Source of the DNA: Candidatus Methylomirabilota bacterium
GTDB lineage: Bacteria; Methylomirabilota; Methylomirabilia; Rokubacteriales; CSP1-6
Assembly: GCA_036002485.1 (NCBI GenBank)
Contig: DASYTI010000107.1
Location: 37,783-101,782 of the forward strand
Reading direction: 5' to 3'
DNA length: 64,000 nt
Shown here: piece by piece, positions 2,108 through 44,849 of the stretch
Layout: each line of letters starts with the position of its first letter
How positions within the stretch are numbered: the first letter of the stretch is position 1
The notes under the pieces: model-generated
Seen by the model: the letters and a program-made list of their open reading frames with translations, nothing else
What the model was told of the DNA's origin: nothing
The model's database searches: none
Made by a program: the position numbers and the translations under genes

Positions 2108-3724
2108 CTAGTTGAGGACCTTGAGCATCTCGGGGTAGTTGTAGCTGTAGTGGAGCGAGAACTCACCGTACTCGGGATCGAACGGCGTGCTCACCCGCTT
2201 GGGATTGCGCGCCCACTGGCCCGCCAGATCGCTGATGGGCAGGCACACCAGGTCGCGCTCGATGCGCTTCTGCGCCTCGGCGTAGATCGCGGCGCGTTTC
2301 TTCACGTCGCGCTCCACCCGTCCCGCGGCGAGCAGGTCGTCAATGGCGCGGTAGTGGGCGAAATTGGTGCCCTTGTTCCCGGTGGCTGGATCGGGGATCT
2401 CCTTGGAGTCGAAGAACAGCGACAGCCAGGGGTCGGCGTCGGGGAGTCGCGTGCCCCCGTACAGGACGAACGGATTCAGGTTCTTCCGGATGTTCTCGTG
2501 GAAGGTCGCGTGCTCGACCACCTGCAGCTCGACGATGATGCCCACCTGCTTGAGCTGCTCCTGGGCCAGGGTGAGCACCTTGGGATAGAAGAAGGACTTG
2601 CTGATGAAGTAGTTCTTGATCGTGAAGCCGTTGGGGTGGCCCGCCTCGGCCAGCAGCTTCTTGGCCAGCGCCGGGTTGTGCTCCGGGAAGTTCATGGGAA
2701 TGTGGCCGAAGTAGCCGGGCGGCACGCAGCTCGGAGCCACCCGGGCCAGGCCGCCGGGGTACATGGTCTCCTTGATGGCCTTGCGGTCGATGGCGTGCAT
2801 GAACGCCTTGCGCACGCGGATGTCGTCGAAGGGCTTCGCGGTCATGTTGATGTAGAAGCGCTCTTGCGTGCCCGGGCCGCGCTTGTCGATGACGGCGCCC
2901 ATTTTCTTGACCTGGTCGGCGAAGTCCGCGGTGACCGCCTCGGGATAGAGCAGGTCGAACGTGCCCTTCTCGAGGCCGATCAGCTTGGTGGAGTCCTCCG
3001 GCACGTCGAAATAGTTCACCTCATCGATCGAGGGCCGGCCGAGGTGGTACTTGTCGAAGGCCTTGAGGACCACCTTCTCGCGCGGCGAGTGCCGGTCGAA
3101 GTAGAAGGGGCCCGTGCCGACGGGGTTCCACTTGAACTGCTCTCCGTACTTCTCGGCGGCCTTTTTCGACACGATGTACCCCTGCTGGTAGCCCACCATG
3201 CGCAGGAGGAAGATGGGGTCGAAGGACTTGAGAGCGATCTGCACGGTGTGGGGGTCGACGACCTCGATGGACTTGATCACCTCGAGGTTCACCCCGAACC
3301 GCGTGCCGGGCGCCCGGCTGATCTGGCGCTCGAAGCTGAACTTGACGTCCTCGGCCGTCAGCTCGCCGAAGCCCTTGTGGAACTGCACGCCCTTCTTGAG
3401 CTTGAACGTCCAGATCGTCCCCTCGGGAGAGAGCGTCCAGCTCTCGGCCAGGTCCGGGTCCACCTCGGCCGTGGTGACCTTGCCGTCCCTGATGGCGAAG
3501 CGCGTGAGGCCCCGGTGCATGAAGCGAGCGATGGCCTGGCTCTGCCCGAGGATGCTCATGTGCGGGTCGAGCGTGTCGGGCTCCTTGGCCGCGATGTTGA
3601 GCACCTTCTTCTTCTGGGCCTCCGCGGCGGGCGGCCCCACCAGGACGCCCAGCGTGAAGGCCGTGAGGACGGCGAGGGCAACGACCAGTGCGAGCGAGAG
3701 CCGTGACCGGACATGGCTGGACAT
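2108..3724 (-). CDS. ABC transporter substrate-binding protein, family 5 (peptide/nickel)
   Basis: ORF 2108..3820 trimmed to the ATG at 3724 (MSSHVRSRLSLALVVALAVLTAF..., a signal peptide). Family-5 SBP pattern (WTFKLKKGVQFHKGFGELTAEDVKFSFER). First gene of a minus-strand SBP-permease-permease operon. Confidence 0.9.
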   Translation of the reverse strand: MSSHVRSRLSLALVVALAVLTAFTLGVLVGPPAAEAQKKKVLNIAAKEPDTLDPHMSILGQSQAIARFMHRGLTRFAIRDGKVTTAEVDPDLAESWTLSPEGTIWTFKLKKGVQFHKGFGELTAEDVKFSFERQISRAPGTRFGVNLEVIKSIEVVDPHTVQIALKSFDPIFLLRMVGYQQGYIVSKKAAEKYGEQFKWNPVGTGPFYFDRHSPREKVVLKAFDKYHLGRPSIDEVNYFDVPEDSTKLIGLEKGTFDLLYPEAVTADFADQVKKMGAVIDKRGPGTQERFYINMTAKPFDDIRVRKAFMHAIDRKAIKETMYPGGLARVAPSCVPPGYFGHIPMNFPEHNPALAKKLLAEAGHPNGFTIKNYFISKSFFYPKVLTLAQEQLKQVGIIVELQVVEHATFHENIRKNLNPFVLYGGTRLPDADPWLSLFFDSKEIPDPATGNKGTNFAHYRAIDDLLAAGRVERDVKKRAAIYAEAQKRIERDLVCLPISDLAGQWARNPKRVSTPFDPEYGEFSLHYSYNYPEMLKVLN

Positions 3725-5898: not shown

Positions 5899-7503
5899 AT
5901 GAAGCAGCGGTTCTCTGTCATCGTGTCGATCGCGACGGCCCTCCTGTGGGCTCTGGCCATGCCGCGGGCCGAAGCCGCTCGGCCGGAGGGGACGCTCACG
6001 GTCGCGGTGGCCACCTTCGGCAACGAGCGCTGGTTGCCGCACCTCTATGTGGGCGCCGAGGACATTGTCCTCAAGCCGCTGTGGGAAAACCTGTTGAATC
6101 GAGACACCAAGGGCAACCTCATCCCCATGTTGGCCGAACGGTGGGAGGTGCTCGACGGGGGGCGGACCTGGAAGTTCCATCTTCGCAAGGGCGTCCGCTT
6201 CCACAACGGGTCGGAGTTCACCGCCGAGGACGTCAAGTTCTCGTTCGCTTCGATTGCGCGGGAAGGCTCGGCGAACTCGCTGGCGCCGGAGTTCCGGCAG
6301 ATCAAGAGCATGGAGATCGAGGGTCCGCACACCATCAGCCTGCGCTTCGAGAAGCCGTTCGTGACCTTCGGCAACCGGGTGACCCACGGGCTCTTCGCCT
6401 CCGTGGCCTATATCCAGTCCAAGAAGCATATCGACACCGCCGGGGAGGACGGGGCGGAGCGCCAGCCCGTCGGCACGGGTCCCTGGAGACTCGCGGAGCA
6501 CGTCCGCGGCGACCGCATCGTCTACGAGGCGGTGGAGAACCACTGGCGAGCCGTGCCCCATTTCAAGCGGCTCGTGTTCTTGAAGGTGCCGGAGCCGGCC
6601 ACCCGCATGGCCATGCTCCGCGCGGGTGGCGCTGATGTCATCGAGATCGGCGGAGAGTACGTGGAGGAGCTGACCAAGGTGGGCATGCGAACGATCACGA
6701 TGCCCAACGTGGCCGCGGTGTGGGTGATTCTCGGGGGACAGTGGCCCACGAAGCCGACATACGATCCCAAGGTGCCCTGGGCGTTGCCCGATGCCGAGCG
6801 TGCTCGCAAGGTGCGCCTGGCCCTCAATCTGGCCGTGGACAAGAAAGCCATCTTCCAGCGGGTGCTGGGCGGGCTCGGGACCCCGGTGGGCACGGTGAAC
6901 TACTATCCGACGGATCCGTGGACTTCGGAGGCCTTGCTGAAGCCGCTTCCCTATGACCCGGCCAGAGCGAAAGCGTTGCTCGCCGAGGCGGGCTATCCCA
7001 ATGGCTTCGAGATCACGATGAATCTCACCGCCTGGCCGGGGAGAGGATACCTCCCCGATGTGGGCGAGGCCGTGGCCACTTACTGGGAGAAGGTGGGCCT
7101 CAAGGTCAAGCGTCGGCCCGTGGACCGGGCCGTGTTCTCGGCGGATTTCCGCGCGCGGGCGTATTCCGGGGTGGCCCTGGCCTATGCCGGGCCCCTCATC
7201 GCGCCGGAGCCCTGGGAGCTTTTCGCGCGCATCGCCCAGACGAAGTCGGCCGTACATCTGCTCGTGGAGCATCCCAAGCTGGATGCGCTCATCGAGCGCC
7301 TGGGCTCCGAGCCGAGCGCCGCGGCGCGGACGCGGATCATGCGCGAGGAGCTTGGGCCGTGGCTCTACGAGTACCTTCCCGCCGTCGCCATCGGGGCGAC
7401 CCACGCGATCGCCGGCGTGGGACCGAAGGTGGGGGAATGGCCGCTCATCCCCGGCCACATGGGCTTCCACAACTGGGAGCTCCTCACCCGGACCGCGCGG
7501 TAA
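5899..7503 (+). CDS. ABC transporter substrate-binding protein, family 5, paralog B
   Basis: 534 aa with a signal peptide. GGAGGAGG lies just upstream of the ATG. Long identical runs shared with paralog A (ARPEGTLTVAVATFGNERWLPHLYVGAED, VPEPATRMAMLRAG, NLTAWPGRGYLPDVGEAVATYWEKVG). Confidence 0.9.
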   Translation: MKQRFSVIVSIATALLWALAMPRAEAARPEGTLTVAVATFGNERWLPHLYVGAEDIVLKPLWENLLNRDTKGNLIPMLAERWEVLDGGRTWKFHLRKGVRFHNGSEFTAEDVKFSFASIAREGSANSLAPEFRQIKSMEIEGPHTISLRFEKPFVTFGNRVTHGLFASVAYIQSKKHIDTAGEDGAERQPVGTGPWRLAEHVRGDRIVYEAVENHWRAVPHFKRLVFLKVPEPATRMAMLRAGGADVIEIGGEYVEELTKVGMRTITMPNVAAVWVILGGQWPTKPTYDPKVPWALPDAERARKVRLALNLAVDKKAIFQRVLGGLGTPVGTVNYYPTDPWTSEALLKPLPYDPARAKALLAEAGYPNGFEITMNLTAWPGRGYLPDVGEAVATYWEKVGLKVKRRPVDRAVFSADFRARAYSGVALAYAGPLIAPEPWELFARIAQTKSAVHLLVEHPKLDALIERLGSEPSAAARTRIMREELGPWLYEYLPAVAIGATHAIAGVGPKVGEWPLIPGHMGFHNWELLTRTAR

Positions 7504-9469: not shown

Positions 9470-10466
9470 GCCGGGCCGCATGCGGGAGTCGCCACCGTTG
9501 CTGGTGGTGGAAGATCTCAAGACGTACTTCTTCACCCGTCGTGGGATCACCAAGGCGGTGGACGGGGTCAGCTTCACCCTCGAGGCCGGGGAAACCCTCG
9601 CTCTCGTCGGGGAGTCGGGATCCGGGAAGTCCGTGACCTGCCTCTCCCTCGTGCGGCTGGTCCCCGAGCCGGCCGGCCGGGTCGTCGGAGGCCGCGTCCT
9701 GTTCCAGGGAGAAGACCTGCTGGAGAAAAGCCCCGCCGAGATGCGGCGCGTGAGGGGAAAGCAGATCGCCATGGTGCTCCAGGACCCCATGACCTCCCTC
9801 AATCCCGCCCTGACCATTGGCGGCCAGGTGAGCGAGGTCGTGCGCCTCCATCAGGGCCTGCGCGGCCCCTCGCTGCGCGAGCGGGTGCTGGACGCGCTCT
9901 CACGACTGCGCATTCCGGGTGTCGAGACAAGGCTCCGGCACTACCAGCACCAGCTGAGCGGCGGGATGCGGCAACGCGTGTCGAGCGCCATCGCCATGTC
10001 GTGCGAACCGCGCCTCCTCATCGCGGACGAGCCCACCACCGCGCTCGACGTGACCATCCAGGCCCAGTATCTCGAGCTGCTCAAGGAGGTGCAGCGCTCG
10101 ACCGGCGTGGCCGTCATCCTGGTCACCCACGATTTCGGCATCGTGGCCGCCCATGCCGATCGGGTGGCCGTGATGTACGCCGGGAGGATCGTGGAGATGG
10201 GGAGCACGCTCCAGGTCTTCGACAACCCGGGGCATCCCTATACCCGGGCCCTCCTGCGCTGCCTTCCCGATGTGGAGCTGACCCGCCACGAGCTCGTCGA
10301 GATCGGCGGGCAGCCCCCTGACCTGGCGCGGCTGCCTCCCGGCTGCCCCTTCGCGCCGCGGTGCCCCGAGCGGCTGCCCATCTGCGAGGAGGCGTACCCG
10401 CCGAGCGTGCCCCTGGCCAGTGGCCATACGGCGCACTGCTGGGTGGCCGCCGGCGCTCACGCCTGA
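9459..10466 (+). CDS. ABC transporter ATP-binding protein (DppD/OppD-type)
   Basis: Walker A GESGSGKS, signature LSGGMRQR, Walker B LLIADEPTTALD, and a C-terminal oligopeptide-ATPase Cys region (PPGCPFAPRCP). An alternative start at 9480 is possible. Confidence 0.92.
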   Translation: MEDRPGRMRESPPLLVVEDLKTYFFTRRGITKAVDGVSFTLEAGETLALVGESGSGKSVTCLSLVRLVPEPAGRVVGGRVLFQGEDLLEKSPAEMRRVRGKQIAMVLQDPMTSLNPALTIGGQVSEVVRLHQGLRGPSLRERVLDALSRLRIPGVETRLRHYQHQLSGGMRQRVSSAIAMSCEPRLLIADEPTTALDVTIQAQYLELLKEVQRSTGVAVILVTHDFGIVAAHADRVAVMYAGRIVEMGSTLQVFDNPGHPYTRALLRCLPDVELTRHELVEIGGQPPDLARLPPGCPFAPRCPERLPICEEAYPPSVPLASGHTAHCWVAAGAHA

Positions 10467-10473
10467 GACCGCG

Positions 10474-11433
<960 letters not shown>

Positions 11434-11451
11434 GCTGGCCTGGACTATTCC

Positions 11452-11664
11452 TGAAGGAGACTCTCTCGTCGTACGGCCCCCTGATTTACTCAGCCCTCGC
11501 CTCGCGGCAGCGCCGCTCAGCTCGAAGTGCGGCCCTCTCCCCCGCGGCGGGGGAGAGGGATGAGAACACTCTCGCCATGCGGCTCTCTTCATTCTGGTCC
11601 CTCTCCCCCAGTGGGGGAGAGGGCAGGGTGAGGGGGTTAGGTGTTCGCGCATAATCCGGGCTAG
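11452..11664. repeat. Composite GC-rich hairpin repeat element (copy 1; REP/BIME- or MITE-like)
   Basis: Two hairpins: ccctctccccc-gcggc-gggggagaggg (11533-11559) and ccctctccccc-agt-gggggagaggg (11599-11623). The 24-mer gggggagagggcagggtgaggggg sits at 11613-11636. The flanks tgaaggaga.tctctcgt.cgtacggcccc and aggtgttcgcgcataatcc.ggctag are shared with copy 5. Lies between convergent genes. Confidence 0.85.
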
Positions 11665-11716
11665 CGACTCCCCGAAGGGCTTCATCCTGATCGGCATGGC
11701 TCACCGACGGCGCCGA

Positions 11717-14035
11717 TCATCTCCTGTTCGCGTCCGCATCGACGGAAGAAGCCGTGCGACTGATCTTCTGGTACAGGAATCCGACGAGGAGGAGGACGAC
11801 ACCGAGCAGGAGGAAGGAGAGCATCCGGTAGAGCGTCTTGATCGAGGCGAGATCGACCACGAAGACCTTGAAGATCGTCAGGCCCAAGAGTCCGAGCGCG
11901 GCATAGCGCATGGGCGCGGAGCGGCGAACGAAGCCCCAGGCGAGCACCACGGCCGCGTACAGCGTCCAGAGCACGGAGAGGCCCACCTGCGTCTTCCAGC
12001 GTATCTCGGTCCGGAGAGCGCGCCGGGCCCCCGGCTTCGCCTCTTGCACGAGCGCGTTCTGATAACGCGTCCAGCCCTGGCTCAGCACGAAGAGCAGGAC
12101 CACGCCCGCCGTGCCCGAGACGGTACGGCCCACCGTGCCGGCGTACAGGGAAGCGCCGGAGCCCGCGAGCCATCGCCCCGACAGTCCGATGACGGCACAG
12201 GCGACGATACGCATGACGAGGTAGCGGTTCACCAGGTCCTCCGCCGCGCTCTTGGCCATGCTGTCGTCCGCGCCCAGCACGCGCGCCAGCAGCATCACCG
12301 CGGCCAGCGGCACCGCGACCGCGAAGGTGGGCGAGGCGATGAGGCGTGACAGCGCGCCCAGCACCAGCACCTGGGCGGCCAGGAGTCCAGCGGGCCAGAG
12401 TCCGGGCGGCTCCCGCCACAGCAGCACCGAGAGCGTCTGGGAGGCGAGGATCCACAGCAGGCTCCGCAGCGTCTCCGGCTTCATGGTGAAGAGCTGGCCT
12501 GGACGGAGCGCCAGGGCAAGCTGTCCCGCCACGAGGGTGGCGGCGACGGTCAGCAGATGGGCGAGGAAGGTCGCGTTCCACACCGGCGGCCAGTTCGGAG
12601 AGGCCCACGTATCGCCGACCAGCACGCGCAAAGCGGCCAGGAAGAGGGCGGCCGTGCCGCCCCAGGCGGCCACGGGCGTGGCCACGCGCGGGGCGAGCCA
12701 CAGCAGGACGGCGCCCTCCGCCGCCCAGGCCAGGGTGATCCACGGCCCCTTGAGAGCAAGCGGGATGGCGAGCGTCACGAAGACGCACGCCACCCCAATG
12801 AGCACGCCCACGGTCGCTTCGTCGTCGGGCACGCGGCGACGGTAGAAACCGGCGGCGAGCGTGTACACGATGGCAAGGGCCATGGCGGCCGGGGCCTCCA
12901 GGAGGGGACGCCACGCGTCGAGGGTCACGTAGACCGCCCAGAAATAGCCCGCGGCCGTGCCGGCGACGATGACGAGATCCACCTCGCGGAGGCGTCGCCC
13001 CTGGCTCCACTCGCGGGCCAGCGGCGTCACGAGGAAGAGGACGAAGAGCGCGGTGAGAAGGGCCAGACGCACCACCGGGGTCTCCGCCTCGGGCTGGCGC
13101 ATGAAGGTCGGGGCCAGCAAGAGCACGGTGCCCGCCCAGGCCAGACGGTTCAGCGCGCGCCAGGTGCGGAAGCGGGCAATGGCCAGGACGAGGAAGTCGA
13201 GCACGACGAGATAGCCCATGAGCACGCGCTCGTTGGGCGCTACGCTCGCGAGCAGCACGGGAGTCAGGAGCCCGCCCAGCAGCGCGAGCACCGCCGTCAC
13301 CTGGCGCTCCGAGATCACCGCCACCATTGTACCCAGCACGGTGACCACGAACATGAGCCCGAAAGCCGCCCCCACGCGCAAGAGCTCGTAGTAGGCATAG
13401 CCCGCGTAGAGAGAGAGGTAGCAGAGCCCGAGACCCAGGCCCGAGAGCCCCTCGGAGAGATAAGGGACATCCCGCCTGCGGTGGAGCACCAGACCGGCCA
13501 GCAACGACACGATGCCCGCGGCGAGCCCCAGGCCGAGCCTCGCCCGAGGGCCGATCAGGTTGTTCTCGATGGACCACTTCACCGCGAACGACGCGGCGAA
13601 GAGAATGGCGACCACGCCGATCCAGGTGGTCCAGCGCGCGCCGATCCGCTGCTCGAGATCGAGCCGCGGCACCGGCGGAGGCTCGGGTGGCGGAGCGGCA
13701 TGCGCGATCGCCTCGCGTGTGGAGGTGGCCGCCGCGGCCTCGGCGCTTACAGGCGCAGGCTCGGGAGCGAACGGGGCGGGCGCTACGGGCTCGAAGGCTG
13801 ATGGAGCTGACGGGACCGCCGGCGGAGGCTGAGGCTGTCCCCGCTGCTCGAGGGTCCAGACCCGATAGAGGAGGTCACGGATCCTTTCCTCGAGGGCCGC
13901 GATGCGCTCCGCCGGCGTTGGCTGACCCGGGCGGGGCCGGTACTCGCGTAGCACTTTGAGGGACACGGCCAGAGCGCCAACCGCCACGAAGAGGGCCAGT
14001 AACGCCATCTGCGAGGAGCCTACACCAGAAGTCAC
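11717..14035 (-). CDS. Large polytopic membrane protein (DUF2339-like)
   Basis: 772 aa. N-terminal TM segment, then a short coiled region (ERIAALEERIRDLLYRVWTLEQ), a Pro/Ala-rich linker, and more than 15 hydrophobic helices. The DUF2339 assignment is from memory of that architecture. Confidence 0.6.
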   Translation of the reverse strand: MTSGVGSSQMALLALFVAVGALAVSLKVLREYRPRPGQPTPAERIAALEERIRDLLYRVWTLEQRGQPQPPPAVPSAPSAFEPVAPAPFAPEPAPVSAEAAAATSTREAIAHAAPPPEPPPVPRLDLEQRIGARWTTWIGVVAILFAASFAVKWSIENNLIGPRARLGLGLAAGIVSLLAGLVLHRRRDVPYLSEGLSGLGLGLCYLSLYAGYAYYELLRVGAAFGLMFVVTVLGTMVAVISERQVTAVLALLGGLLTPVLLASVAPNERVLMGYLVVLDFLVLAIARFRTWRALNRLAWAGTVLLLAPTFMRQPEAETPVVRLALLTALFVLFLVTPLAREWSQGRRLREVDLVIVAGTAAGYFWAVYVTLDAWRPLLEAPAAMALAIVYTLAAGFYRRRVPDDEATVGVLIGVACVFVTLAIPLALKGPWITLAWAAEGAVLLWLAPRVATPVAAWGGTAALFLAALRVLVGDTWASPNWPPVWNATFLAHLLTVAATLVAGQLALALRPGQLFTMKPETLRSLLWILASQTLSVLLWREPPGLWPAGLLAAQVLVLGALSRLIASPTFAVAVPLAAVMLLARVLGADDSMAKSAAEDLVNRYLVMRIVACAVIGLSGRWLAGSGASLYAGTVGRTVSGTAGVVLLFVLSQGWTRYQNALVQEAKPGARRALRTEIRWKTQVGLSVLWTLYAAVVLAWGFVRRSAPMRYAALGLLGLTIFKVFVVDLASIKTLYRMLSFLLLGVVLLLVGFLYQKISRTASSVDADANRR

Positions 14036-17576: not shown

Positions 17577-18520
17577 TGGCCGTGAGCCTGCCTGAAGTCG
17601 ATCGGCTGTCCGTCACCACGGTGGTGGACAACTTCATCGACAACCTGCGCGCCGACGACCGGATCGCCAAGCGCTTCACCCACGCCCAGGCACGCCGCAT
17701 GCCCACCTTGAGGGCCGAGCACGGCCTGGGCCACTGGGTCGAGGTGGAGCGCGGCGGCAAGAGCCGGCGCATCGCCTTCGATTTCGGGCTCACGGGCGAG
17801 AGCTACACGCACAACTTCCTCGAGCTGGGGCTCGAGGCGGGGATGGTAGACGCGGTGGCCCTGAGTCACGGGCACATGGACCACTACGGCGGCCTCGGCA
17901 GCTTCCTCAAGACCTATCGCCGGCGGATGAGGAATGACGTCGTCTTCTACGGCGGCCGCGACCACTTCCTGCCGCGCTACCACGAGCGGAACAATGAGCG
18001 TGTGTATATCGGCCGGCTCGATCGCGACGAGCTGGAGCGTTACGATCTCGAGGTGCGCGTGGTCGAGAAGCCGACGGTACTGCCGGAGGGCGTGCTCCTG
18101 AGCGGGGAGATGCACGAGACGGTACCCTTCGAGGTCATTCCTCCCTCGCTCAAGGTGGAGCGCGACGGCCAGGTCGTCCAGGACACCTTCATCGGCGAGC
18201 AGGCCCTCATCGCCAACGTCAGGAACCGGGGTCTCGTGGTCGTCACCTCGTGCTCCCACCGCGGCATCGTCGGCATCTGCCGGCACGCCGTCAAGGTCTC
18301 GGGCGTTCCCAAGGTCCATGCCGTCATCGGGGGCTTCCACCTCTCGGGACTCACGGGCGAGCGCATCACCCAGGTGGTGGACGCCTTCCGCGACCTGGGC
18401 ATGGACTACCTGATCCCCCAGCACTGCACGGGGCTCGAAGCCGTCATCCAGATGGCCGTGCACCTGCCCAAGGAGCTGGTGGTAAGCTCGGTGGGAAGCA
18501 CGTTCACCTTCGGGGCCTGA
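17576..18520 (+). CDS. MBL-fold metallo-hydrolase (COG1237-like)
   Basis: 314 aa. SHGHMDHYGG (HxHxDH motif), then later CSHRGIVG and GGFHL. The GTG start abuts the repeat, so the real start may be the next GTG at 17582. Confidence 0.75.
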   Translation: MAVSLPEVDRLSVTTVVDNFIDNLRADDRIAKRFTHAQARRMPTLRAEHGLGHWVEVERGGKSRRIAFDFGLTGESYTHNFLELGLEAGMVDAVALSHGHMDHYGGLGSFLKTYRRRMRNDVVFYGGRDHFLPRYHERNNERVYIGRLDRDELERYDLEVRVVEKPTVLPEGVLLSGEMHETVPFEVIPPSLKVERDGQVVQDTFIGEQALIANVRNRGLVVVTSCSHRGIVGICRHAVKVSGVPKVHAVIGGFHLSGLTGERITQVVDAFRDLGMDYLIPQHCTGLEAVIQMAVHLPKELVVSSVGSTFTFGA

Positions 18521-42232: not shown

Positions 42233-42344
42233 CGTCTGCTGGTAAGTATCATGAGCGCGCCGCCTTTTGCTAGGCTACCCGCGGATCGCTTTGGTAGACT
42301 CGATCGCGATCCGTTTGCCATACACGTCTTGGGGAAAGAAGGCG

Positions 42345-43157
42345 ATGATTCAAAGGCTCTCGAGAAATCTCGGCGTGTACGAAGGCGAGGCGCCCCCGGA
42401 GACCCGGCAACTGGAAGTCGACGGGTACGCGGTCATCCGAAACGTGTTCGCGGCCGACGACGTGCAGGCGCTACGCGATGAGATCGACTCCGTCTTCGCG
42501 TCGCACCCTCCGGAGCGTGGCCGCTCCGACGAGTTCCGCTATGAGATGTTCAACCGCAGCGCGTTGTCCCAGGCCGCCCTCGCGCACCCGCGCATCCTTG
42601 CTGTGATCGAGCCGCTGCTCGGCACTGATTGCCACGTGATCGCCAACACCGCGTGGCGCAATCGGCCGGAGTTTGCCGGCGGCCCGTGGCACTGCGACGC
42701 CGGCCCGCACATCCCCCGGCCCGAAGGCGTGGCGTGGGACGAGCGCATCCCCTATCCCGTGTTCGCCATCGGTGCGCATCTGCTGCTCCTCGACTGCGAC
42801 GAGGCCGACGGACCTACCGCGATCGTGCCGGGGAGCCATCGATCGGGTCGACTCGCCCCCGCCGGCCGGAAGAACGACCCGACACTGACCTACGATGGCC
42901 GTCCTCCCGTGCTTCTCGTGGGGCGGGCCGGCGATGTCGCCCTGTTCGTCTCCGACGCGTGGCACCGCGGCACTCCCGCTGCGGGGGGCCGCGGCCGGTA
43001 CTTCCTGCAGGTGCACTATGGACGGCGCGATCTTGCCCAGCGTGTGCGGACGACCGACCAGGTGAACCACGTGGCCCCGGAGGCGCTCGCCCGGGCCCGC
43101 GACGAGCGGCAGCGCTCGATTCTCGGCCTGCACGACCCGTCTTTCTACGACGGCTGA
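42345..43157 (+). CDS. Phytanoyl-CoA dioxygenase (PhyH) family Fe(II)/2OG oxygenase
   Basis: ORF trimmed to the ATG at 42345. Contains GYAVIRNVF, WHCDAG (HxD), IVPGSHR and WHRGTP. Confidence 0.75.
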   Translation: MIQRLSRNLGVYEGEAPPETRQLEVDGYAVIRNVFAADDVQALRDEIDSVFASHPPERGRSDEFRYEMFNRSALSQAALAHPRILAVIEPLLGTDCHVIANTAWRNRPEFAGGPWHCDAGPHIPRPEGVAWDERIPYPVFAIGAHLLLLDCDEADGPTAIVPGSHRSGRLAPAGRKNDPTLTYDGRPPVLLVGRAGDVALFVSDAWHRGTPAAGGRGRYFLQVHYGRRDLAQRVRTTDQVNHVAPEALARARDERQRSILGLHDPSFYDG

Positions 43158-43165
43158 CTACCCGC

Positions 43166-43591
43166 CTACTCGCTGGCGCCCTCGGTCTTTTGCCGCTCGA
43201 GGACACGCGCCGTGGCTCGCCCCTTGTCGGGGTGGGGGTCCTTGACGATCCCATAGGCGGCACGTCCTTCGTGGTCCTCGGGCAGGTGCTCGGTAATCGG
43301 CCGGCCGTCCGGCGCCACGAAGAGCAGGCAGTGGCAGTACTTCCACTTCTGCATCTCGTCGCAGGCGCAGATCCAGCGGCGCAGCTTGGCTTCCGCTTGG
43401 GGGTCGGGGTAGAAGTTGCACGGGCAGAGGGGCCGCCCGACCTGCTCGATGTGGCGCGCGAGGCCCTCCACCACGGTCTCGGTGACTTCGACATCGGGGT
43501 GCAGGGAGGTGCCCGACTTCTCCGCATACTTGCGCGCGTAGTTCCACATCTTGTCGATGTTGGCTTGCGACGGCTTGACCGGCTCGCTCAT
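43166..43591 (-). CDS. Ferredoxin:thioredoxin reductase catalytic-subunit homolog (FTRc-like)
   Basis: 141 aa. Cysteine pattern CPC-x16-CAC-x8-CHC (LCPCNFYPDPQAEAKLRRWICACDEMQKWKYCHCLLF), matching the FTR catalytic chain 4Fe-4S/disulfide motif. The start overlaps the stop of the upstream Grx-like gene (ATGA). Confidence 0.85.
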   Translation of the reverse strand: MSEPVKPSQANIDKMWNYARKYAEKSGTSLHPDVEVTETVVEGLARHIEQVGRPLCPCNFYPDPQAEAKLRRWICACDEMQKWKYCHCLLFVAPDGRPITEHLPEDHEGRAAYGIVKDPHPDKGRATARVLERQKTEGASE

Positions 43592-43827
43592 CCCTGGGCC
43601 TGCGCCAATGCTTCGTCGATCTTGGCCGGGTTGAAGCCGGCCAGCCGCGTCTCGCCGATGATGATGACGGGGAGCGAGGTCATGCCGATCGCCATCAGCT
43701 CCTCGCGGGCCTGGGGGTCCCGGCCCACGTTCTTCTCCACGAATGCCACCCCCTTCTGCGACAGATACTCTGTCGCGCGATGACAGGGGCCTCAGCCGAT
43801 GTTCGTGTAGACGGTCACGCTCGCCAT
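43588..43827 (-). CDS. Glutaredoxin/NrdH-like redox protein with in-frame UGA (candidate selenocysteine) in a U-G-P-C motif
   Basis: Not in the ORF track because it is split by a TGA at 43792-43794. My manual translation is MASVTVYTNIG[U]GPCHRATEYLSQKGVAFVEKNVGRDPQAREELMAIGMTSLPVIIIGETRLAGFNPAKIDEALAQAQG (79 aa). A GGAGG lies about 10 nt upstream of the ATG at 43827. The TGA occupies the first Cys position of CxxC. A hairpin follows downstream. Confidence 0.6.
43750..43790 (-). promoter_or_regulatory. Candidate bacterial SECIS stem-loop
   Basis: RNA read on the minus strand: UGA GGCCCCU GUCAUCGC GCGACAG-AGUAU-CUGUCGC AGA AGGGG. There is a 7-bp upper stem (43758-43776) with a 5-nt loop containing GU, and a 5-bp lower stem CCCCU/AGGGG. 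The apical loop starts 23 nt after the UGA. Confidence 0.4.
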
Positions 43828-43991
43828 GTGGTCCTCACCCTCCTGGAACGGTCTTTGCCTCTTGAGATGCCGGGGCCGCCCCTGCCGATTCGCGGAGATG
43901 CGGCCCATCCCACCAGGCCACGCCGAATCTGCACTGGCGCGGGCGGCTGGTCAAGCCCAGGGCCAGCCCGCGGCCCGCGCGCCCGCCCCGC

Positions 43992-44849
43992 TCAGAACGG
44001 GACCGATCCCCGGACGACCGTGCGCTGCAGGATGCGGCGGTGCTTGTCCATCTCGTAGTTCCGCACGGCTCGATGCAGGAGGCAGCGGTTGTCCCAGATC
44101 ACGAGGTCACCGCGCCGCCATTGGTGGACGTAGACGAACGCCGGCTGCGTCGTGTGGGCAAGGAGTCGGTCGAGGATGGCCCGGCCCTCCGCCTCCGCCA
44201 TGCCCACGACGTGTGAGGTGTGCAGGCCGAGGTAGAGCGTCTTCACCCCCGTGTCAGGGTGTGTTCGCACCAGCGGATGAGTCACCGGGGGCCGCTCGAG
44301 CGCCTCCTCCGCGGTGGCCGGGCGGCCGCCGATCTTACGCCGGCTCGCCTCCCAGCTGTGCACGACCTTGAGGTCGGCGATCTCACGCTTGGTCGCCTCC
44401 GGAAGCGCCGCGTAGCCCATGGCCGTGTTCGCGAACTGCGTGTCACCGCCCACGGGCGGCAGCTCGAGAGCGTGCAGCATGGTCAGGAGAGAGGGCGCGG
44501 CGTGGTACGACTTGTCGCTGTGCCAGAAGTAGTTGCCCCTTTCTCGCGGGGACGACGTGGGGCGATCATTCTCGTCGAGATTCTGAACCACGTGCACGAC
44601 CGGCGACCGCGCCCCGTCGGGCCGGCGGGCCACGTGCTCTTCGATGGGGCCGAAGTGGAGGGTGAGCGCGTGTTGCTGGTCCGCGGTGAGGTGCTGGTCG
44701 CGGAAGACGAGCACATAATGCTCGAGGAAGGCCCTCACGATGGCGGCCTTCAACACGGACCCCAGTGGCTCTGAGAGGTCGATACCGGCGATTTCACCGC
44801 CCGCCACCGGAGAGAGCCGTCGCACTGCCATCGTTGCCGTATCGGTCAT
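43992..44849 (-). CDS. TauD/TfdA family Fe(II)/2-oxoglutarate dioxygenase
   Basis: 285 aa. Contains IAGIDLSEPL, VLVFRDQHLT, the WHSDKSY (HxD) motif, GGDTQFAN and VIWDNRCLLH. Confidence 0.85.
   Translation of the reverse strand: MTDTATMAVRRLSPVAGGEIAGIDLSEPLGSVLKAAIVRAFLEHYVLVFRDQHLTADQQHALTLHFGPIEEHVARRPDGARSPVVHVVQNLDENDRPTSSPRERGNYFWHSDKSYHAAPSLLTMLHALELPPVGGDTQFANTAMGYAALPEATKREIADLKVVHSWEASRRKIGGRPATAEEALERPPVTHPLVRTHPDTGVKTLYLGLHTSHVVGMAEAEGRAILDRLLAHTTQPAFVYVHQWRRGDLVIWDNRCLLHRAVRNYEMDKHRRILQRTVVRGSVPF

Follow-up and report, generated by a model that had tools for sequence, protein, structure and literature searches.

An in-frame UGA codon and a conserved hairpin in a glutaredoxin/NrdH-like gene paired with an FTRc-like gene: a probable selenoprotein of Rokubacteria and Methylomirabilota

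The redoxin locus

The 64,000-nt stretch analyzed here (the window) is from contig DASYTI010000107.1 of a Candidatus Methylomirabilota bacterium. On its minus strand, at positions 43588–43827, is a small redoxin gene that is interrupted by an in-frame TGA codon. The gene consists of 11 codons starting with the ATG at 43827–43825, the TGA at 43792–43794, 67 further sense codons and a TGA stop codon at 43590–43588. Read through with selenocysteine (Sec, U) at the internal TGA, the 79 amino acid (aa) product is MASVTVYTNIG-U-GPCHRATEYLSQKGVAFVEKNVGRDPQAREELMAIGMTSLPVIIIGETRLAGFNPAKIDEALAQAQG, and U, at the nucleophilic position, is the first residue of a U-G-P-C redox motif. Comparative data make it very probable that this represents a real, translated gene for a Sec-containing protein with a glutaredoxin (Grx)/NrdH fold. 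An earlier note on this DNA, made from the sequence alone, had proposed such a selenoprotein, and that interpretation is supported. The note had also stated that the gene is hidden from the list of open reading frames (ORFs), and in the mechanical ORF list only a 53-aa tail (43588–43749) is found. Retranslation reproduces the complete 79-aa read-through frame that the note described, with 67 sense codons past the TGA.

A Shine-Dalgarno-like purine stretch, read from the sequence, is at 43831–43843 (minus strand) and has GGAGG at 43843–43839 and GAGGA at 43836–43832. The distance from GGAGG to the ATG is 11 nt, in agreement with the approximately 10 nt given in the note. An ATG or GTG start codon is present 9–12 codons before the TGA in all orthologs. 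A hairpin within the ORF (43758–43776, minus strand) follows the TGA, as the note had seen. Immediately downstream on the same strand is a 141-aa gene for an FTRc-like [4Fe-4S] disulfide reductase (43166–43591), which matches Pfam PF02943 (FeThRed_B) with 83.3 bits against a cutoff of 22. The redoxin stop codon and the ATG of this gene (43591–43589) overlap as ATGA, in keeping with the translational coupling to the FTRc-like gene that the note had proposed. A TauD-family dioxygenase gene (43992–44849, minus strand) is the upstream flank and a convergent PhyH-family gene (42267–43157, plus strand) the other flank, both identified by a domain search of flanking genes. A promoter and terminator scan of positions 43000–44100 found none.

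The 64-kb window was scanned without bias for pairs of coding-like ORFs that are split by a single TGA. The scan finds the redoxin locus and one ordinary gene boundary, and nothing else; the redoxin locus is thus beyond chance. Together with the retention of the TGA in related sequences (see below), this bears out the note's argument that a random nonsense mutation is an unlikely source of the interrupted frame. Position 18518 (plus strand) was considered as a recoding site and rejected, as the downstream in-frame ORF starts with its own Met (MKLPKRVTICEVGTRDGFQ...) and represents an ordinary gene boundary. A motif-filtered scan for genes with in-frame TGA codons gave many antisense artefacts that are typical of high-GC DNA, and the stricter unbiased scan flags only the redoxin.

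Conservation of the UGA codon and the hairpin

Orthologs were collected in two scans. The first, with one genome per species, yielded 35 close orthologs with 68–95% identity in metagenome-assembled genomes (MAGs) labelled Rokuibacteriota/Methylomirabilota and Entotheonella/Tectimicrobiota, i.e., 29 Rokubacteria/Methylomirabilota loci and 6 Entotheonella-type loci. The second, independent of the first, used the FTRc gene as anchor in metagenomes and added 46 redoxin genes. With the window sequence the set comprises 82 sequences; a comparison over 207 nt leaves 77 distinct ones. There is at least one overlap between the scans, since metagenome contig L080 and MAG locus L035 are one contig.

TGA is present at the active-site column in all 82 orthologous sequences, and in all 35 genome loci it is within U-G-P-C. 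The frame is intact in the 35 genome and 46 metagenome loci, with no sign of the decay that the note had named as grounds for doubt, and these loci are the other UGA-containing orthologs that it had anticipated. The ortholog alignment shows conserved amino acids together with synonymous substitutions on both sides of the TGA, which indicates purifying selection; this includes the 11 codons before the UGA. More distant homologs (L036–L044, 29–46% identity) have Cys at the TGA column, in CPYC and similar motifs. In solved NrdH and Grx structures the first Cys of CxxC aligns with position 12 of the redoxin and the second with position 15. The expected alignment of Cys homologs with the TGA column is therefore present in both sequences and structures.

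Apart from these sequences, a single ortholog, L047 (57–299, plus strand), has TGC in place of TGA. This is a single change, and the hairpin is intact and identical to the SECIS of the L035 type. Either Sec was converted to Cys very recently in L047, or the TGC is a base-call error. An established Cys lineage (L047/P0004) was rejected on the basis of this one TGA to TGC change beside a fully intact hairpin. A homolog in a Bacillota MAG, L041 (approximately 6270–6522, plus strand), has U-P-Y-C, resembles the cGrx1-type selenoprotein of C. oremlandii and has no FTRc neighbor.

The gene is systematically mis-annotated across its database relatives. The best 120 of 229 relatives are almost all C-terminal fragments of 46–62 aa that are labelled "glutaredoxin 3", "NrdH" or "hypothetical". 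The artificial internal starts differ between ortholog annotations (M at EYL, V at AFV and M at EKN). Full-length entries among these 120 have Trp at the column in four cases (P0002, P0003, P0006 and P0010), Ser in one and Cys in one. The Trp entries point to gene callers that used a TGA-sense code on short contigs. Entry P0001 has Ser at the Sec column.

The hairpin consists of a 5' arm GCGACAGA (43776–43769), a GUA loop (43768–43766) and a 3' arm UCUGUCGC (43765–43758). The 8-bp stem begins 15 nt past the UGA. Numbered from the U of the UGA, the loop is G27-U28-A29, and the spacing from UGA to loop is 23 nt. Criteria of the type used by bSECISearch for bacterial selenocysteine insertion sequence (SECIS) elements are a stem-loop just past the UGA and a G in the apical loop, at roughly 16–37 nt from the UGA. 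The redoxin hairpin agrees with these in stem, loop and spacing.

Sequence comparisons show that the pairing is maintained. The hairpin forms in every ortholog, and 100% of cells are paired in an alignment of 36 sequences. Within this alignment one pair has a C-G to U-A double change in 7 sequences and two pairs change from A-U to G-U. The level of pairing and covariation was reached by none of 500 shuffles and by no slid register. In the compensatory change, ACA (Thr) becomes ATG or GTA (Met/Val) in the 5' arm, which is non-synonymous, and CTG becomes CTA in the 3' arm, which is synonymous. The larger sample of 82 sequences contains G·U intermediates of this change and five stem variants, each with 8 of 8 pairs formed. 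Codon usage is also constrained: four of six codons inside the hairpin are synonymously invariant, compared to one of 61 outside (Fisher p = 9.5e-5), and the remaining two hairpin codons vary solely in ways that preserve pairing. Among the frozen codons are ACA and TAT, an unusual choice at 68% GC. The hairpin that the note had pointed to is thus conserved, covarying and synonymously constrained, which is consistent with a role as the element that decodes the UGA.

The redoxin family and the FTRc-like partner

With U read as C, the redoxin matches Pfam Glutaredoxin (PF00462) with 52 bits against a cutoff of 22.9 (E = 8.4e-14), in keeping with the Grx/NrdH-type sequence recognized in the note. 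An AlphaFold2 model of a close homolog has the order beta1-alpha1-beta2-alpha2-beta3-beta4-alpha3 (pLDDT 81). Foldseek comparison gives TM scores of 0.79–0.85 to Grx and NrdH structures, with 0.83 to both PDB 7c10 and NrdH. The SLPV segment aligns with the cis-Pro region. By both sequence and predicted structure, the nearest solved structure is cGrx1 (PDB 7c10/7c12), followed by NrdH redoxins.

Assignment to a named family is less close. The best NCBIfam match is YruB (TIGR02196), a near miss with 77.5 bits against a cutoff of 88.55. The NrdH models are further below cutoff (TIGR02194, 57 vs 85.75; NF007657, 47.8 vs 131), and the Grx3 model is also missed by a wide margin. Curated models of Grx-like selenoproteins stay below cutoff as well: NF041212 (42.4/66), NF041114 (19.9/72), NF041211 (25.4/100), NF047338 (28.2/97) and NF045501 (32.3/325). 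The best of the curated selenoprotein models is Uxx_star with 42.4 bits vs 66. The redoxin has SLP and GFNP where classical Grx has its glutathione contacts, TVP and GG-x-DD. Judged from its sequence, the redoxin appears to be without the hallmarks of a glutathione-dependent Grx, and it is below the NrdH cutoffs.

UxxC glutaredoxins are already known as a kind of selenoprotein, one of them experimentally (cGrx1, PMC7642778), and UxxC Grx and Grx-like selenoproteins are listed in the GOS (Global Ocean Sampling) study and in a 2026 review (PMC2398784, PMC13188914). cGrx1 of Clostridium (Alkaliphilus) oremlandii has a U-P-x-C motif, is natively a selenoprotein and was crystallized as a Cys mutant; it is the proposed reductant of a selenoprotein MsrA and is described as recycled by glutathione (PMC7642778). 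The redoxin resembles cGrx1 in fold and length and in having Sec as the first residue of U-x-x-C just before helix alpha1, with 40% identity, TM 0.83–0.88 and a phmmer E value of 3e-13. A setting in which Sec reduces Sec is also common to both, with MsrA for cGrx1 and AhpD-like, ArsC-like or peroxiredoxin neighbors in relatives of the redoxin. There are differences, however. The motif is U-P-H-C in cGrx1 and U-G-P-C in the redoxin, and the hosts are Clostridia in one case and Rokubacteria/Methylomirabilota and Entotheonella-type bacteria in the other. For cGrx1 recycling by glutathione is described, as opposed to the conserved FTRc-like Fe-S reductase that accompanies the redoxin, and among the inspected loci none was noted to have an MsrA gene next to the redoxin.

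The NrdH proteins of E. coli (1h75), M. tuberculosis (4hs1/4f2i) and C. glutamicum (4fiw) share with the redoxin a small Grx fold without the classical glutathione-binding motifs. Their C-x-x-C-H and G-F-(R/N)-P segments align with the redoxin, and the TM score is about 0.8. NrdH has CVQC and WSGFRP, whereas the redoxin has UGPC and LAGFNP. The redoxin is also without nearby ribonucleotide reductase genes; its neighbors are TauD, PhyH and FTRc. The Grx-like UxxC families and the double-Sec FtrB family (PMC2398784; NF041212, NF041114, NF041211, NF047338 and NF041072) have a thioredoxin/Grx fold in which Sec replaces a redox Cys, and they demonstrate that Sec use extends to Grx-like as well as FTR-type proteins. 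No curated model of these reaches its cutoff on the window protein. The redoxin clade, its UGPC motif and its FTRc partner are outside every curated model tested.

In every one of the 34 genome loci with sufficient flanking sequence, from two phyla, the FTRc-like gene adjoins the redoxin gene, and it does so in L047 and L048 too. In the Rokubacteria/Methylomirabilota loci it directly follows the redoxin gene on the same strand; the six Entotheonella-type loci have it in convergent orientation. The protein matches Synechocystis FTRc with an E value of 3e-24 and keeps the CPC-x16-CxC-x8-CHC motifs and the His. The invariant columns, aligned to 2pvg/1dj7, are C56, C58, C75, C77, C86, H87 and C88. 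The window FTRc is of the all-Cys type (NF041072, 39.6 bits vs a cutoff of 160). A conserved 45-aa C-terminal extension (residues 97–141, PITEHLPEDHEGRAAYGIVKDPHPDKGRA...), listed at window positions 43097–43165, is absent from cyanobacterial FTRc. This extension might take the place of the missing variable subunit or provide a surface for docking.

Comparison with the FTR of cyanobacteria and chloroplasts (1dj7/2pvg) and with stand-alone or fused FTRc-like enzymes (4tpu) shows that the window enzyme has the full cluster/disulfide signature and the His. In FTR, as reportedly described by Dai et al. in 2007, the attack on the thioredoxin-fold substrate is at the exposed, N-terminal Cys of its active site. 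This is the position of Sec in the redoxin. A difference is the presumed substrate, here a Grx/NrdH-like selenoprotein and not a WCGPC thioredoxin. A further difference is the variable subunit FTRv, which is not expected outside oxygenic phototrophs (PMC9025218). FTRC is found without FTRV in non-phototrophs, and ferredoxin and thioredoxin can each bind FTRC alone (PMC9025218).

Divergent FTRc homologs in the metagenome scan have no adjacent redoxin, and a pairing general to all FTRc was rejected for that reason. FTRc genes of this type (at approximately 3001–3440) in L110, L114, L116, L117, L125 and L128 are on lower-GC or different contigs with no adjacent Grx-like gene. In the L110 FTRc about 14 aa are inserted between CPC and CxC, and L128, to judge from its longer match, may have this insertion as well.

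Electron transfer, UGA decoding and neighboring selenoprotein genes

Genes of curated selenoprotein families are located next to the redoxin-FTRc pair in most relatives. An AhpD/CMD-domain gene with the motif C-x-Y-U-V-x-A-H is downstream of FTRc in 21 of the 29 Rokubacteria/Methylomirabilota loci, and past its UGA is an invariant hairpin, CUGCAGC-CGGGAA-GCUGCAG, with the loop CGGGAA at 24–29. An ArsC-family (seleno)protein gene with U-x-T-C (NF041106, 122.7 bits vs 85) is just upstream of the redoxin in 6 of 6 Entotheonella-type loci. Its UGA is followed by the invariant hairpin GGUUUCCAG-GUUU-UUGGAAACC, with the loop G27-U28-U-U. Both hairpins are at the same distance from the UGA as the redoxin hairpin, as expected if one SelB serves all of these genes. 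The AhpD-like, ArsC-like and PrxQ neighbors are absent beside the redoxin in the window and in its two closest relatives, L001 and L002.

These arrangements suggest how the redoxin may be made and used. A ribosome would meet the UGA at codon 12 of the redoxin mRNA. As the conservation suggests, a SelB-type factor with Sec-tRNA(Sec), tethered to the hairpin 15–37 nt downstream by way of the GUA loop, would insert Sec in preference to termination. The redoxin would be co-transcribed and translationally coupled with the FTRc-like [4Fe-4S] disulfide reductase, which would draw single electrons from a ferredoxin-type donor and reduce the selenenylsulfide (Se-S) of the oxidized redoxin via a mixed bond at the exposed Sec. 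In its selenol/thiol form the redoxin would then reduce client proteins. The probable clients in most relatives are the neighbor-encoded selenoproteins, i.e., AhpD-like CxxU, ArsC-like UxxC and PrxQ-type TPGU proteins. Of the mechanisms considered, this route from a ferredoxin-type donor through the FTRc-like enzyme and the redoxin Se-S bond to clients is the most likely, and we hold it with moderate confidence. Gene linkage likewise somewhat favors the FTRc-like enzyme as the dedicated reductase of the Se-S form. The broader proposal, that the two proteins form a ferredoxin-driven selenium relay that is independent of NAD(P)H and passes electrons to neighboring selenoprotein clients, is tentative. 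If it is true, a selenenylsulfide would be the first such substrate for the [4Fe-4S] FTR-type enzyme class, and Rokubacteria and Entotheonella-type bacteria would have a dedicated low-potential "Sec-to-Sec" chain for peroxide and arsenate detoxification.

Several observations weigh against parts of this interpretation. Related FTRc homologs with 63–79% identity are on other contigs without an adjacent redoxin, and no ferredoxin-type Cys motifs were found in the coding-like ORFs of the window. Electron transfer from FTRc to the redoxin is proposed from gene linkage. The single-sequence fold energy of the hairpin region is not significant (z = -1.5). A search of the window at Rfam gathering thresholds gave no match; bacterial SECIS elements are poorly modelled in Rfam. 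The hairpin is convincing because of the comparative data only, and the fold z-score and Rfam add nothing on their own. No selA, selB or selD gene and no tRNA-Sec was found in the window or in the related loci, which total approximately 0.9 Mb. With ARAGORN, neither the window nor 36 loci gave a tRNA or tRNA-Sec, and tblastn with E. coli SelA, SelB and SelD gave no match in the window or related loci. With only about 20 kb per genome covered, this negative result is uninformative. Use of Sec in these genomes is supported indirectly, by the co-located selenoprotein genes and the literature on Methylomirabilota. The phylum is reported to be selenoprotein-rich, with one MAG that has 63 predicted selenoproteins and with Sec-type hydrogenases (PMC13188914, PMC13582414).

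A plausible competing explanation accepts the selenoprotein but not the FTRc-like enzyme as the reductase that serves it. Recycling would then be by thioredoxin reductase, as for NrdH, or by glutathione, as proposed for cGrx1, or another low-molecular-weight thiol. The adjacency would represent co-regulation, or a reverse flow in which the redoxin donates to an FTRc-like enzyme that has another substrate. The nearest structural relatives, NrdH redoxins and cGrx1, which is described as recycled by glutathione (PMC7642778), fit this explanation, as do the FTRc homologs that stand alone and the lack of a visible ferredoxin gene in the window. It accounts less well for a linkage that is kept in 34 of 34 loci in two phyla and persists through an inversion, and for the overlap of the redoxin stop and FTRc start codons. 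The wide margins by which the NCBIfam NrdH and Grx3 models are missed also argue against it, as do the SLP and GFNP segments in place of the TVP and GG-x-DD of classical Grx.

The remaining alternatives concern the UGA itself. It is unlikely that the codon is recoded as Cys, by a SelB-dependent tRNA of the tRNA(ReC)/allo-tRNA type, or is subject to near-cognate read-through. Genes of the tRNA(ReC) type (selC*) do exist in some Sec-using bacteria (PMC13582414), and the TGC of L047 beside an intact hairpin shows that Cys is tolerated. However, TGC or TGT would be a cheaper, one-step route to Cys, yet TGA with a costly hairpin is kept in 82 of 82 sequences. In addition, neighboring genes of curated selenoprotein families share the UGA-hairpin arrangement, in a lineage that is reported to be Sec-rich (PMC13188914).

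Still less probable is termination at the UGA, by which the first 11 codons would encode a leader peptide and the hairpin would regulate either a separately started C-terminal fragment or the FTRc gene. The UGA is near the start codon, and gene callers do annotate C-terminal fragments of 50–62 aa with internal starts. But such a fragment is without strand beta1 and the whole redox motif, the internal starts are inconsistent between orthologs, and the 11 upstream codons are conserved as amino acids with synonymous change.

A nonsense mutation (pseudogene), a sequencing error for TGC/TGT or an alternative code with Trp or Gly at TGA is effectively refuted: four database entries (P0002, P0003, P0006 and P0010) translate the codon as W, but about 80 independent assemblies share the same TGA and show no decay of the frame, homologs have Cys at the column and never Trp or Gly, and TGA is an ordinary stop in the window, where it ends 15 of 35 long coding-like ORFs, the TauD gene and the redoxin itself right before the FTRc start, so that a TGA-sense code is excluded. 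The known lineages with codes 4 and 25 are also unlike a genome of 68% GC. With the alternatives weighed in this way, a Sec-containing redoxin is very probably what the gene encodes.

To a selenoprotein specialist the finding would be useful but not surprising. It adds a well-supported family with a clear SECIS element within the ORF to the selenoproteomes of Methylomirabilota/Rokubacteria and Entotheonella-type bacteria. These hosts are uncultured soil and sponge bacteria, and Methylomirabilota/Rokubacteria is the soil phylum recently reported to have the largest bacterial selenoproteome. The coupling to an FTRc-like reductase and to neighboring selenoproteins is the part worth following up. 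The FTRc pairing and the neighboring Sec genes lead to a testable hypothesis on the substrates of stand-alone bacterial FTRc and on the recycling of selenenylsulfide redoxins.

Details of the neighboring genes are as follows. The PrxQ/BCP-type peroxiredoxin gene (L048, 11544–11978, minus strand) has TGA at the peroxidatic Cys, FYPKADTPG-U-TAEGC, and was called as fragments of 43 and 81 aa. The contig is 818 kb long, and the redoxin-FTRc pair is 1 kb away from this gene. The ArsC-like gene (approximately 9600–9950, plus strand, in L028; also in L024 and L030–L033) has YYHRKG-U-x-T-C and ends about 27 nt before the redoxin start. The AhpD-like gene (11097–11933, plus strand, in L008) encodes about 278 aa and has the in-frame TGA at the position of the AhpD CxxC. 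It is also present in L003, L004, L006, L007, L009–L011, L013–L018, L020, L021, L023, L025, L027, L029 and L034. It is 0–0.5 kb past FTRc on the same strand, and TGA is found in 21 of 21 genes. A RidA/YjgF (Endoribonuclease L-PSP) gene (10646–11096, plus strand, in L008) is between FTRc and the AhpD-like gene in some loci, and in L007 the AhpD-like gene is directly after FTRc.

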